A stretch of DNA of 64,000 bases from an uncultured Coprobacillus sp. (lineage in GTDB: Bacteria > Bacillota_I > Bacilli_A > ML615J-28 > CAG-698): assembly GCA_964389905.1 (NCBI GenBank), contig CAYMGD010000007.1, forward strand, positions 483 to 64,482. Direction: 5' to 3'. Positions 28,557 to 31,431 of the stretch are shown piece by piece. Every line of letters starts with the position of its first letter. The first letter of the stretch is position 1. Below the pieces are notes generated by a model. It did no database searches, had not been told where the DNA came from, and saw only the letters and a list, made by a program, of their open reading frames with translations. Both the position numbers and the translations under genes were made by a program.

Positions 28557-28722
28557 AGCTTTTACCTCCTCATTTGGTACATCATAGTAAAAGAAAAGTA
28601 GGCGCAATATGCACCCACTAAAACTAATCACAAATCAAAATGATGTTATAAGTGACATTTACCTATTGATATTTTCAATCAGGTGAGAAGTGGGTACTTC
28701 TTCTTTCCACTATGATATTTAC
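28557..28722 (-). promoter_or_regulatory. infC-rpmI-rplT leader with terminator/antiterminator (L20-leader-like attenuator)
   Basis: Terminator AGUGGGUGC-auauu-GCGCCUACU plus UUUCUUUU at 28619-28586. An upstream ACCCACU (28695-28689) is complementary to the terminator 5-prime arm. Confidence 0.55.
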
Positions 28723-29255
28723 TTGTATATTATACAACAATTTAATGTGTTTGTCAATTGTTTTTTTATCAATTGACACTGTTTTTTATCAACAGTAAGC
28801 ATTTTATTAGAATATAATTTATTTAACTTATTGTATGTTTTCCCAAGTTCTATATTATGGCGATATACTTTCATCTCATATATTTCTTCAACACTATATG
28901 GAAGATTATAAAGGCTTTCACGAGTTATTATAACATAATAATTACTAGTATTACGTATTGTTCTCGCAAACTCTTCACTCTTTATAAATTTATTTCCTTC
29001 ATCAATAAATATGATACTATCTTCAATCCTTTCAATACGAGCTTGCCAATCATTCGTTGTTAATACATGACATTTTTTATCACATTTAATCTTAACACCA
29101 CTTAGTTTACCAAGTTCTTCATAATCAGAAATCAAATTAATAAGAGTTGTTTTACCTGTAGCACTATTTCCTCGAATAATAGTTATATTCCTAGTAATAT
29201 CAAATTTAAATGAAATTTTTTGATTACTTATTTCTATGTGATATTTTCCAACCAT
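28719..29255 (-). CDS. Mini P-loop ATPase (178 aa), partner of the DUF4869-like gene
   Basis: Walker A GNSATGKTT, Walker B IIFIDEG, then YYVIITRES. GAGGTG RBS. Starts 11 nt after the upstream stop. Confidence 0.7.
   Translation of the reverse strand: MVGKYHIEISNQKISFKFDITRNITIIRGNSATGKTTLINLISDYEELGKLSGVKIKCDKKCHVLTTNDWQARIERIEDSIIFIDEGNKFIKSEEFARTIRNTSNYYVIITRESLYNLPYSVEEIYEMKVYRHNIELGKTYNKLNKLYSNKMLTVDKKQCQLIKKQLTNTLNCCIIYK
28729..28757 (-). promoter_or_regulatory. Perfect consensus promoter for the infC operon
   Basis: Minus strand reads TTGACA (28757-28752), a 17-nt spacer, then TATAAT (28734-28729). Lies inside the last codons of the upstream ATPase ORF. Confidence 0.65.
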
Positions 29256-29266
29256 ATAAACACCTC

Positions 29267-29701
29267 TTAAACATATTTTCCAGCAGTCAAAACCAAATCT
29301 CGCATATTATTAATCATTTTCTTTTCATTAAGTACATATACATTAAATTCTTTACCAAAATCCATTATATGGTTTAAATTAATAGTTATGTCTTTTTCCT
29401 CAGCAAGTTTAAGCAATCATTTTGCGCAGTTATCACCACATGTAGATGCATTAAAAACATTTTTTGAATCATTTCTAATTAAAATTAATGTTTTAACGCC
29501 TCCCGATAAACTTGTAGGTGGAATAATTCCCAAATAGGGACTATCAATTGCTCTTTCGCCTATAACTTTTGAATTATCAACATCTTCAATCATTTTTTGT
29601 GTTAAAGGATCAAGAAGCCATTTTTCTTTATATATATTTTTAAAATATATTTCAGTGTTGTAAATAGCTTTAGGCATATCACCAAAAAAAATGTTTAGCA
29701 T
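29267..29701 (-). pseudogene. DUF4869-like gene (145 codons) with a single in-frame TGA at codon 95; a recent pseudogene or a TGA read-through
   Basis: The ORF track ends at CGDNCAK*, with TGA at 29419-29417. The same frame continues for 49 more sense codons (LLKLAEEKDITINLNHIMDFG...) to TAA at 29269-29267. The N-terminal MLNIFFGDMP...LSGGVKTLILI resembles DUF4869 as I recall it. Confidence 0.6.
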
Positions 29702-29736: not shown

Positions 29737-29765
29737 ATTTTACTATAAAAAATAAAAAATATCAA
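29737..29765 (-). promoter_or_regulatory. Putative promoter of the DUF4869/ATPase pair
   Basis: Minus strand reads TTGATA (29765-29760), a 17-nt spacer, then TAAAAT (29742-29737). Confidence 0.35.
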
Positions 29766-29841
29766 TATCAAAGTAATTAATACAATGATAATTTATTTAC
29801 ATCAATGCAATTATACATACTAGAAAAAGGCATTTAAGCCT

Positions 29842-31431
29842 TTATAATTGTTCGAATATTTTCGTTCCTTTTTTCTTTAAATATACTAATAATATTATAT
29901 TAATAGCCATAGTTAATAAAATAAATAATGATACGTACATATAAGCATTAATATATTGTTGAAGAAAAGCATATATTACTGAAAATACAATAACATATAT
30001 CCAGCCTGCAAAGAGTGTAATAACTACACCTATACTTTGTTTTACTGGTACAACTTCACTATTCCAGTTTAGTATTGGCATTTTTAAGTTTATTACAAGG
30101 CCAAATAATGCCGATAGCATAACACAAATAATACCTGTTATGATCATTAATAAACCTTGAATAAAAGATATTTCAATCGAAAACAAAGTGCATATGCATA
30201 CAAATAACACTCCAGGAAGGGTAATTATTAGGTGTAACACTATTTTTGATTTTAAAATATCCCAAGTTTTAATTGGTAAAGTTTGTAATACCCAAATGTT
30301 TCTTCCTTCTAACGAGATTGAAGGAGATGTTATATCATTCATCATCGCTAGAAAGACTGTGGAAAGTGTTAAGATTAAGAATTGTGCATTTTCTAAATTG
30401 ATTTGCTTTAGTGTTTCATTCAAGAAACTACCTTTAAATATTATATATATTCCCATTATTAGCATAAATAATGTTCCTATTCCACAATTCAATATGTAAA
30501 TTGGAGATGAAAAAAAGTGTTTTAGTTCCTTTTTTACTAAAGAAACTCGCTTATTATTCTTTTGATATTTCAAATTCTTTTTTACTTGTTTTGCTTTGGT
30601 ATCATTTGTTGTTACTATTTTAATGAAACTATGTGATAACAACACATATTCAATTAAGAATAGTCCTAATACAATAATGGTAAAGACTACAGATGAGAGT
30701 ATGTCTCCTGTTCCCATCATCCCCATTGCATAGAAAGGATAAACATATGACTTTATTATTTTTGCAGTGGCAGCACTATCACTTACTAATTTTGTTATTA
30801 AATTACTTATTTCAAAATAGCAATAATAATAAACAAATATGAAAAGAAGTGAAGCTATTACAATAACAAGACTTTTGTTTTTTAGTTTAGCACTTATTTT
30901 CGCAACTACATATCCTAATAAACAAGATAAAACTAAAACAAATATTGTAATTAAAATATATAACAATAACGATGTAATAACACTTATTATAGTCACATTA
31001 CCATATATATAATATACTATTAATGCTGGTATCATTACCACACTTGAGTATAACCAGCCCATAAAATATACACCTATTAATCTTGTGATTAAAATATATT
31101 TTGTAGGTATTGGCATTGATAGTAATATATCATTATCTTTAGCTTGATACAGACTTGAATATGTATTGAAGATGCTTCCAAAGGCTCCAAAAACGATTGC
31201 TAGTCCACTCATCATTGTAAAGTATAACCACATAAGATCAGCTTCTTTGAATGCTTTACACATCATCAGTGCTGGTTCTACAAAGATACAAGCCACAAAT
31301 ATCATTAGTATAGCAAATAATAATATATATAATATTTGTTTTCCTTTCGTGAAACTTTCACCTGTTTTCTTACTGACAAAAAAGCTTTTATTAATTTCTA
31401 ATAATTGCTTTTTGATAAGGGCTTTAAGCAT
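29842..31431 (-). CDS. Large polytopic ABC-2-like transporter permease
   Basis: 529 aa with more than ten hydrophobic segments. Its start overlaps the stop of the ABC ATPase gene. Confidence 0.7.
   Translation of the reverse strand: MLKALIKKQLLEINKSFFVSKKTGESFTKGKQILYILLFAILMIFVACIFVEPALMMCKAFKEADLMWLYFTMMSGLAIVFGAFGSIFNTYSSLYQAKDNDILLSMPIPTKYILITRLIGVYFMGWLYSSVVMIPALIVYYIYGNVTIISVITSLLLYILITIFVLVLSCLLGYVVAKISAKLKNKSLVIVIASLLFIFVYYYCYFEISNLITKLVSDSAATAKIIKSYVYPFYAMGMMGTGDILSSVVFTIIVLGLFLIEYVLLSHSFIKIVTTNDTKAKQVKKNLKYQKNNKRVSLVKKELKHFFSSPIYILNCGIGTLFMLIMGIYIIFKGSFLNETLKQINLENAQFLILTLSTVFLAMMNDITSPSISLEGRNIWVLQTLPIKTWDILKSKIVLHLIITLPGVLFVCICTLFSIEISFIQGLLMIITGIICVMLSALFGLVINLKMPILNWNSEVVPVKQSIGVVITLFAGWIYVIVFSVIYAFLQQYINAYMYVSLFILLTMAINIILLVYLKKKGTKIFEQL

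Follow-up and report, generated by a model that had tools for sequence, protein, structure and literature searches.

A probable inactivated copy of a horizontally spread DUF4869 cassette with a proposed OLD/PARIS-like mechanism upstream of infC

In a 64,000-nucleotide window from the genome of an uncultured Coprobacillus sp., two genes lie between the gene for an ABC-2 permease and the promoter of infC. They likely represent a now inactive copy of a two-gene cassette that has spread horizontally, the intact form of which would be an ATP-gated nuclease similar to OLD and PARIS. The first gene (gene A) encodes a member of the DUF4869 family and the second (gene B) an ABC-type P-loop protein. The two families are paired across genomes, and in the window gene B is truncated; the site of the cassette stands empty in a relative.

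Both open reading frames lie on the minus strand where they were first described. Gene A (29267..29701) comprises 144 sense positions and a stop codon, and is separated from gene B by the 11-nt spacer GAGGTGTTTAT (29266..29256), which contains GAGGTG and supplies the ribosome-binding site for gene B. A promoter of its own had been assigned to the pair. The motif TTGATA-17-TAAAAT is indeed present on the minus strand upstream of gene A (29765..29737), with 10 of 12 consensus matches, but the AT-rich region yields no excess of promoter-like matches (18, where shuffled sequence gives 12.7 ± 4.0), and therefore it counts as a consensus match only. The terminator proposed for the ABC-2 operon corresponds to a short palindromic hairpin over the stop codon of the permease gene (29826..29843), but with a 6-bp stem holding three GC pairs and a T-run rule satisfied on the plus strand only, it is a possible weak terminator. 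On the other side of the pair, the infC promoter TTGACA-17-TATAAT (28757..28729, minus strand) is perfect, matching the consensus at 12 of 12 positions.

The assignment of gene A to DUF4869 is secure, with a match to Pfam PF16163 at an E value of 2.6e-56 and 189.4 bits (gathering cut-off, 28.9 bits). When the internal TGA is read as tryptophan the match spans profile positions 1 to 126 of 128, and a six-frame search of the genome retrieved the family at 184 bits with one TGA inside. Intact members of the family are approximately 145 amino acids long, and the window protein is 77 to 81% identical to intact proteins of 144 residues. The TGA is codon 95 of the gene (29417..29419, minus strand). 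Tryptophan is invariant or nearly so at this position in two alignments of the family (A1 and A3), where at least 90% of the homologues carry it and two carry phenylalanine. A gut-metagenome contig approximately 91% identical to the window has TGG in place of the TGA. The genome uses translation table 11, ORFs of which cover 92.9% of the window, and TGA ends 4 of its 56 long ORFs, including ATGA overlaps; codon 95 is therefore a stop. Genetic code 4 and selenocysteine insertion were considered for this codon and ruled out, as TGA is a terminator here and the homologues have tryptophan or phenylalanine, not cysteine or selenocysteine. Gene A thus appears to have been disabled in the window by a TGG-to-TGA nonsense mutation. 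A search of public runs for reads of the source organism returned a single run, which held contigs of a related strain only.

Gene B is truncated. It had been taken for a 178-aa mini P-loop ATPase, but such proteins do not form a separate gene type: homology extends over residues 1 to 150 only (28806..29255, minus strand), which are homologous to a conserved protein of 318 to 326 amino acids, and they are all that remains of a protein of approximately 319. These residues are 63 to 67% identical to two intact homologues (P0121 and P0122), and residues 1 to 129 are 53% identical to the homologue in genome G002. The deletion junction occupies 28770..28805 on the minus strand, with homology to the intact relative ending at 28802. 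In run X1, contig record 3 aligns with the window from 28802 to 29656 and then diverges; its diverging sequence translates as ...NGSIFDGNTII, the linker that precedes TEDS in the partner family, and continues into the missing domain. This C-terminal domain, of approximately 170 residues, is absent from the whole 98.7%-complete assembly, in which residues 1 to 150 alone were found.

The last 28 codons of the 178-aa ORF run through the junction and the native infC promoter, so that 28719..28769 (minus strand), the native infC upstream region, is read as the final codons and stop of the truncated frame. Homology to the infC upstream region of other members of the genus starts at approximately 28765 to 28769, and this region is conserved from the -35 box onward in five of them (G001 to G005; G006 is not in the alignment). 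The infC promoter is native and was not imported by the cassette. One same-genus genome (G003) lacks the cassette at this site, and approximately 190 bp separate its permease gene from the infC promoter. A deletion, the second lesion of the window copy, took all of gene B that lay beyond codon ~151 and, with it, the putative effector domain. Because the relative contig has both TGG and the missing domain, and because the same-genus site is empty, the window copy is best regarded as a dead remnant; judged by its sequence it is not expected to function, and the locus should be annotated as a pseudogenised remnant. The earlier note had itself stated that its proposal would fail if the ATPase were only a piece of some longer, disrupted gene, and in this window it is such a piece. 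Nor is the module a pair built on a small ATPase: intact partners have a further domain, which is probably catalytic.

The pair could instead be a working variant, in which the TGA is a sequencing error or is read through and the partner of approximately 150 residues forms with DUF4869 an effector-less ATPase that might have a regulatory role or be left over from an immunity system. Partners cut near residues 146 to 152 do occur beside an intact DUF4869 gene at six loci (L060, L062, L067, L074, L077, and L097), and codon changes relative to the 91%-identical contig are mostly synonymous (15 against 10, in a partial list). However, these short partners belong in part to one lineage, the tails at L074 and L077 being identical, and truncation points across the family are scattered (57, 140 to 152, 173 to 176, 192 to 222, and 245 residues, in addition to frameshift splits), as decay predicts. 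A synonymous excess is also expected from recent inactivation, the tail of the window ORF is the infC promoter region and not a conserved C terminus, intact partners are the rule, and this genome uses TGA to end genes. A functional variant of this kind is very improbable, and decay of a longer pair remains the preferred reading.

The pairing of the two families is conserved. The partner adjoins DUF4869 in 71 of 76 informative loci, in either gene order, and is intact (318 to 326 aa) in 49 of these 71 and partial in 22. Co-occurrence across genomes, which the earlier note had asked about, is therefore the norm, and its self-contained module stands as a conserved two-gene pair, although the copy seen here is truncated and the true partner is larger than it appeared. 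Junctions usually overlap or measure no more than 15 nt, with values from -4 to +15 nt predominating in the 49 intact pairs, and the 11-nt spacing of the window recurs at loci L004 to L008. Pairwise identities of DUF4869 and partner are correlated (mirror-tree r = 0.85; Mantel test, 0/999). Fusions are rare exceptions, represented by P0257, a natural fusion of the two families, and P0304, a chimaeric ORF made up of portions of the two. No conserved third gene was found, with 170 and 155 different Pfam families among 135 and 130 neighbours. Clustering at 90% identity gave at least 6735 clusters of DUF4869 and 6603 of the partner, and DUF4869 is reduced to 1,922 representatives at 50% identity. 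The hosts of DUF4869 are human-gut and rumen anaerobes.

The resemblance of gene A to part of an ABC ATPase, first noticed as a signature-like LSGG followed by a possible degenerate Walker B and H-loop, is supported by profile comparison. The segments PPTSLSGGVKTLILI, VFNASTCGDNCAK, and ITINLNH are all found in gene A, and L65-S66-G67-G68 is invariant among the homologues. Alignment of the DUF4869 profile with a profile of 56 ABC nucleotide-binding domains (hhalign, E = 3.6e-4) places LSGG on the LSGGQ signature, VFNAS on the hhhDE strand of Walker B, and ITINLNH on the H-loop strand, with H111 on the histidine. The order of secondary-structure elements in the AF2 model (pLDDT, 95.3) agrees with that of ABC domains. 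Nearly all of the top 50 Foldseek matches of this model are of the ABC class (PtuA, SMC heads, cohesin SMC3, ABC nucleotide-binding domains, and AriA). The best E value among them is 6e-3 and none reaches 1e-3; the SMC head 1e69 gives the best TM score (0.46; probability, 0.95). Single-sequence hhalign against one ABC ATPase gave no match, comparison with the N-terminal domain of the partner was negative, and the DUF4869 profile found nothing significant among PDB sequences. On these sequence and model comparisons, DUF4869 looks like an ABC/SMC-type domain that has no Walker A motif but retains the signature (LSGG, invariant), a "D-loop" (CGDNC), and a histidine resembling that of the H-loop. 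No GxxGxGK[ST] occurs in its 144 residues, and the place of Walker B is taken by an invariant F-N-A-S without acidic residues. As far as its sequence tells, DUF4869 is an ABC-like relic and not itself an ATPase.

The N-terminal domain of the partner appears complementary in its motifs. The Walker A (GNSATGKTT) and Walker B (IIFIDEG) motifs pointed out earlier are present, and G29, S31, G34, K35, T37, D85, and E86 are invariant in the partner alignment (A2). The lack of a signature motif in gene B extends to the family: none of 40 aligned partners contains an LSGG-like motif, and neither these partners nor the AF2 secondary structure show a helical lobe separating the two Walker motifs. The domain aligns with the ABC nucleotide-binding profile (hhalign, E = 8.8e-10; probability, 96.5). 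The AF2 model of the intact partner (pLDDT, 88.4) matches the MutS ATPase, the OLD nuclease 6p74 (E = 1.4e-4; probability, 0.98), GajA (8sm3; E = 4.1e-4), and ABCE1 in Foldseek, and also non-ABC P-loop folds (KaiC, RecA, and SF3 helicases) with similar E values. Viral structures gave generic P-loop matches only. The partner family is not in Pfam; its weak Pfam matches are to ABC_tran, AAA_23, and AAA_29, and its weak PADLOC matches are confined to the N termini of the ABC-type defence ATPases PbeC, PtuA, LmuB, and AriA. Searches of both window proteins against Pfam, NCBIfam, PHROGs, and PADLOC returned only DUF4869 and weak N-terminal P-loop/ABC matches, and searches of intact partners against Pfam, NCBIfam, and PADLOC returned only the latter.

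The C-terminal domain of intact partners is a four-stranded beta/alpha domain with invariant acidic residues at the ends of strands. The invariant residues are E, D, G, G, D, and ExFE, arranged as T-E-D after beta-1, A-D-G after beta-3, and E-x-F-E after beta-4. The main family thus has D-G in place of the canonical TOPRIM DxD, and a divergent subfamily of 366 to 394 residues carries L-D-Y-D (DxD) after beta-3; a homology search on this subfamily revealed the DxD motif, and its C-terminal domain, too, is without a Pfam annotation. Searches of Pfam, NCBIfam, PADLOC, and PDB sequences gave the domain no significant match; there was also no sequence-profile match to the Toprim, DUF4435, or RloB models, and no profile similarity (hhalign) to a TOPRIM-like protein of the same window. 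From the modelled fold and the position of its acidic residues, it is a probable metal-dependent nuclease with an acidic pocket, the fold of which may be TOPRIM-like or another of the Rossmannoid kind.

For the intact pair we infer a composite ATP site, a nuclease activity, and a biological role, as follows. Gene A would be the relic of an ABC/SMC nucleotide-binding domain that has lost its Walker A loop and the acidic residues of Walker B. It may heterodimerise head to tail with the product of gene B, as ABC domains do, with one ATP sandwiched between the P-loop of B and the signature motif of A. With neither a Walker A motif nor the acidic residues of Walker B in DUF4869, there can be at most one such composite site. 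The supply of the signature motif in trans, already suspected in the earlier note, is supported but unproven. ATP binding or hydrolysis would then gate the TOPRIM-like metal-dependent nuclease domain of B in a manner resembling the OLD, Gabija GajA, PARIS, and AbiL systems, and the cassette would probably serve to fend off phages or plasmids or have a function akin to addiction.

The distribution of the cassette is that of an accessory element. It occurs in 3 of 61 close relatives, a screen of 401 genomes from the phylum detected it above the Pfam cut-off in 2, and the closest homologues belong to another class. Each species carries it at a different locus, two copies within one genus are 53% identical and sit at different sites, and roughly a quarter of the copies are decayed. 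A DNA repair or chromosome-maintenance ATPase of the MutS/RecF/SbcC kind, with a receiver- or HAD-like regulatory C-terminal domain and no role in conflict, would not be expected to show this patchy, horizontally transferred pattern or to be pseudogenised so often. Such a housekeeping function has in its favour that the best Foldseek matches of the partner include the ATPase domains of MutS and MutS2, that many neighbours are housekeeping genes, and that the best PDB sequence match of the C-terminal domain is a response-regulator receiver domain, at a non-significant E value of 0.18. However, the MutS matches cover the P-loop domain only (about 175 to 198 aligned columns), and of the readings weighed here this one is given the least credence.

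The neighbours of the cassette include integrases, a serine recombinase, a relaxase, and IS66, as well as AAA_21/AAA_15, Schlafen-AlbA_2, PglZ, and Fic proteins, and tandem arrays of the cassette occur. Together with its compact, autonomous layout of two translationally coupled genes, its sporadic occurrence, and the frequent loss of the putative effector half while DUF4869 stays intact, this would also suit a toxin-antitoxin or addiction module that serves the maintenance of mobile elements and not phage defence, with the C-terminal domain of the partner as toxin and DUF4869 as a dedicated antitoxin keeping the ATPase-nuclease inactive. Against this, the cassette is rare in mobile replicons, being present on 3 of 72,556 plasmids and in 5 of 50,697 phages, and most neighbours are chromosomal housekeeping genes. 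The invariant ABC interface motifs of DUF4869 (LSGG, CGDNC, and His) further suggest a co-catalytic role and not that of a simple plug. A toxin-antitoxin function is therefore considered unlikely, although it overlaps with an abortive-infection function and does not exclude it.

An ATP-gated nuclease is thus kept as the working model for the intact cassette. Tentatively, and as a possibility on which we would not insist, the pair may represent an undescribed architectural class among OLD-like immune nucleases, smaller than any known ABC-ATPase/TOPRIM system, in which a pseudo-nucleotide-binding domain would give the signature, D-loop, and H-loop in trans to a Walker A/B domain of 150 residues, and a single composite site would gate the fused nuclease. 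If so, the effector half, missing from the window copy too, would have been lost time and again because of the cost of an abortive-infection toxin. DUF4869 comprises thousands of proteins without an assigned function, and searches of the available literature library for DUF4869 and PF16163 found no paper. Should the model hold, the cassette would add a class to the OLD, PARIS, and Gabija immune nucleases and offer a minimal, genetically tractable system, with the ABC "ATP sandwich" cut down to one site formed by two specialised half-proteins, that would be useful for understanding how nucleotide binding by ABC ATPases is linked to an effector.

Among known systems, the intact partner most resembles the OLD proteins (Class 1: P2 Old and Thermus scotoductus OLD, PDB 6p74) and GajA of Gabija (Class 2, 8sm3), in which an ABC ATPase is followed by an acidic-pocket TOPRIM-type domain, as proposed for the partner, and which are, like the cassette, accessory and sporadic. 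OLD function requires both the ATPase and the Toprim residues (PMC10568477). OLD and GajA are single chains of 500 to 600 residues with a complete ABC domain (Walker A, signature, and Walker B) and a dimerisation insert, whereas the P-loop domain of the cassette has approximately 150 residues and the ATPase motifs are divided between two genes, with the signature on a separate, P-loop-less protein. The OLD and Toprim models of Pfam, NCBIfam, and PADLOC find no match in the partner. The cassette is therefore not counted as a member of the OLD family but as OLD-like in its proposed working.

The OLD architecture is split over two genes in PARIS (AriA with AriB, a DUF4435/TOPRIM protein; "Class 4 OLD") and in AbiL (AbiLi with AbiLii/RloB) (PMC10568477, PMC11464382). 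AriA is a weak fold match of DUF4869 (8v46 and 8v47) and a weak PADLOC match of the partner N terminus, with E values of 0.003 to 0.03 over the P-loop region only; no match to AriB or DUF4435 was found in the cassette. PARIS is divided between the ATPase and the nuclease, AriA being a complete ABC ATPase of 53 to 55 kDa and AriB a separate protein of 35 kDa, whereas the cassette is divided through the ATPase itself, with a signature half on one side and Walker A/B plus the putative effector on the other.

The best structural neighbours of DUF4869 are PtuA of Septu (8eea/8ee4) and the SMC head 1e69. In PtuA and in SMC/Rad50 heads, ATP is held between the Walker A motif of one head and the signature of the other, but each subunit carries all the motifs and two ATP sites are formed. 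DUF4869, which leaves room for one composite site at most, has neither a coiled coil nor an insertion domain. The asymmetric ABC dimers of TAP1/2 and CFTR NBD1/2 have one degenerate site, which leaves catalysis to a single composite site, and both domains still bind nucleotide. The cassette differs from them in its non-transporter context, and because DUF4869 has no P-loop at all, the division of labour between its two halves would be complete.

The two open reading frames reported in the earlier note, at 29701..29267 (gene 1) and 29255..28719 (gene 2), are present on the minus strand with their 11-nt spacer (GAGGTGTTTAT, minus strand). The promoter-like hexamers assigned to them also exist, but such matches are not enriched in the AT-rich DNA here. 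Gene 1, if the internal TGA is translated, matches the DUF4869 domain over its full length (Pfam PF16163; E value of 2.6e-56, 189 bits). The in-frame TGA occupies codon 95 (29419..29417, minus strand). The host genome uses the standard bacterial code, with table-11 ORFs covering 92.9% of the window and 4 of 56 long ORFs ending in TGA, two of them as ATGA overlaps. The codon-95 position is a tryptophan in at least 90% of homologues (alignments of 23 and 33 sequences), and it reads TGG in a public gut-metagenome contig that is ~91% identical to the window over 28802-29656, which indicates that the stop in gene 1 is a TGG-to-TGA nonsense change. The alternative explanation of this TGA is an assembly error instead of a nonsense mutation.

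Gene 2, taken in the earlier note for a 178-amino-acid P-loop ATPase gene, is a truncated copy of the gene that usually adjoins DUF4869. In the closest metagenomic relatives, the DUF4869 gene and the same 11-nt spacer are followed by a gene for a 319-amino-acid protein, and in G002, which belongs to the same genus, a gene for a 318-amino-acid protein comes after the DUF4869 gene. The gene 2 ORF aligns with full-length partners over residues 1 to 150 alone (63 to 67% identity), and with the G002 partner at 53% identity over residues 1 to 129. When the whole assembly (98.7% complete) was searched in six frames, residues 1 to 150 were the sole match, and no partner sequence beyond residue 150 appeared. 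The ~91% identical contig diverges from the window at 28802 and runs on, in translation, as ...NGSIFDGNTII, the linker ahead of the conserved TEDS motif in full-length partners. Below ~28769, the window shares homology with the DNA upstream of infC in five aligned genomes of the same genus (G001 to G005), this homology starting at or just before the −35 box of a perfect infC promoter. These two limits place the last ~28 codons of the ORF in junction and native promoter DNA that is read in frame. At this locus, the ATPase of the earlier note is thus what is left of a longer gene that was disrupted, an outcome that the note had itself set as refuting its reading, and the window copy of the two-gene cassette is very probably an inactivated remnant.

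In G003, also of the same genus, the infC promoter lies ~190 bp beyond a homologous ABC-2 permease gene, and the cassette is absent; this arrangement is the empty site. Of the codon changes relative to the ~91% identical contig that were listed, 15 are synonymous and 10 are non-synonymous, an excess that weakly suggests, the list being partial, selection on the window copy until fairly recently. The remnant (28802-29701) has 26% G+C against 28.6% for the host, and its closest protein homologues lie in genomes of ~42% G+C; the gut-metagenome relative with ~91% nucleotide identity shows that an intact copy is carried by an AT-rich lineage. The G002 pair, from a second species of the genus (G002:C1:5243-8620), comprises an intact DUF4869 gene and the 318-amino-acid partner, adjoins an AAA_14/DUF4143 ATPase gene at a different locus, and is 53% identical to the window copy, so that the genus appears to have gained the cassette on two or more occasions. 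The site ahead of the infC promoter is a hot spot of recombination or insertion, with conservation setting in right at the −35 box. The gene found there varies among the same-genus genomes examined (window 28757-28900 versus loci L010 to L014), being an ABC-2 permease gene, an acyl-carrier-protein-like gene, or a transglutaminase-like gene of 420 amino acids.

Clustering at 90% identity yields families of about equal size, with 6735 DUF4869 and 6603 partner clusters. The partner family has no Pfam domain and carries the RefSeq label "hypothetical protein," and no paper naming DUF4869 or PF16163 was found in the literature searched. Eighty loci from different species, mainly Clostridia but also Negativicutes, Collinsella, Treponema, Prevotella, and Erysipelotrichales, were compared, and 76 were informative. 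The adjacency that the earlier note set as a check is conserved: an intact partner is directly adjacent at 49 of the 76 loci (downstream at 45, upstream at 3, and on both sides at 1), a split or truncated one occurs at 22, and the partner is missing at 5. Junctions mostly range from −4 to +15 nt. The two proteins show correlated pairwise identities (r = 0.85 for 48 intact pairs; 0 of 999 permutations as high), P0257 is a natural fusion, and P0304 is a chimeric ORF with parts of both genes. No conserved third gene was found in the neighborhoods. The cassette is sporadic: 3 of the 61 close relatives have it, as do, above the Pfam cutoff, 2 of the 401 genomes from the phylum of the host, and collections of phages and plasmids rarely contain it. 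Most neighbors are ordinary genes; some are recombinases, a relaxase, or IS66, and others are of defense type (AAA_21/AAA_15, Schlafen-AlbA_2, PglZ, and Fic).

Tandem or alternating arrays of the two genes occur at L077 (5962-9163), L097 (3787-6438), and L050 (6001-7789), with members in part cut near residue 150 or split, which suggests duplication and recombination between copies. In an Oscillospiraceae metagenome-assembled genome (SVTV01000006.1; L005/L019, 10641-12435), the cassette has, at a distance of ~3 kb, a gene of >1,000 amino acids with a Pfam RdRP match (PF05183, RNA-dependent RNA polymerase of eukaryotic type); with a relaxase and a serine recombinase nearby, this looks like a mobile element. 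Three DUF4869 proteins (P0248, P0267, and P0270; 268 to 279 amino acids) carry an unrelated N-terminal extension of 120 to 135 amino acids, and the 446-amino-acid partner P0168 has an internally duplicated P-loop domain.

The AF2 model of DUF4869 (pLDDT of 95.3) retrieves with Foldseek nearly exclusively ABC-class heads from the PDB, namely PtuA, SMC 1e69 (probability of 0.95, TM score of 0.46), cohesin SMC3, transporter NBDs, and AriA, none with an E value of <1e-3. A profile of 100 DUF4869 sequences aligns over 80 columns (E value of 3.6e-4) with a profile of 56 paralogous ABC NBDs encoded by the host genome. Every motif is in register in this alignment, LSGG matching the signature motif, VFNAS the Walker B position, CGDN the D-loop, and ITINLNH the H-loop strand, His on His. 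DUF4869 has neither a P-loop nor the Walker B acids and is thus no ATPase by itself.

The intact partner (AF2 pLDDT of 88.4) has an N-terminal domain of ~150 amino acids that matches the same NBD profile (E value of 8.8e-10); its Walker A and Walker B residues are invariant, and the partner alignment shows no signature motif. Its C-terminal domain has four parallel strands alternating with helices, with invariant T-E-D, G, D, and E-x-F-E at the strand ends; at the third strand, a divergent subfamily (366 to 394 amino acids) has L-D-Y-D, a canonical DxD. Divergent partners of 360 to 394 amino acids (L003 837-2021 and P0393 to P0419) have a Cys-rich C-terminal end (CF..x..CC..x6..CKL), possibly a zinc ribbon, that the main family lacks. 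The top PDB matches of the full-length model include OLD nuclease 6p74 and GajA 8sm3 (E value of ~1e-4), along with MutS ATPase domains. Since searches of Pfam, NCBIfam, PADLOC, and the PDB gave the C-terminal domain no significant sequence match, its predicted "TOPRIM-like" character rests on topology, motif placement, and the OLD/GajA fold matches; a receiver-like or another acidic-pocket Rossmannoid fold is the alternative.

Walker A and B on the partner complement the signature, D-loop, and H-loop on DUF4869, and the two proteins are co-inherited and occasionally fused. On these grounds the split, composite ABC-like pair proposed earlier survives as an idea for the family, but not for the window, where the ATPase is a fragment; the observation of the earlier note thus holds in part, and its interpretation has partial support. 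DUF4869 and its partner would pair head to tail as an ABC-type heterodimer, and the signature motif donated in trans by DUF4869 would complete the one composite ATP site. If OLD, Gabija, PARIS, and AbiL (PMC10568477, PMC11464382) are a guide, ATP binding or hydrolysis may control the partner's putative fused metal-dependent nuclease. The cassette could then serve in defense against phages or plasmids or have an addiction-like function. The chances that a composite-site heterodimer gates a nuclease across the family appear evenly balanced. Although the window copy is very probably dead, its family makes a good candidate, and one that can be tested, for a split ABC-nuclease system of minimal size.

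In the proposed model the cassette would function like members of the OLD family, yet it falls outside that family by the membership tests: no single chain has a complete ATPase, and OLD, Toprim, and AriB models gave no match to the cassette proteins. PARIS likewise distributes an OLD architecture over two genes, but there the split lies between ATPase and nuclease, whereas in the cassette it passes through the ATPase itself.
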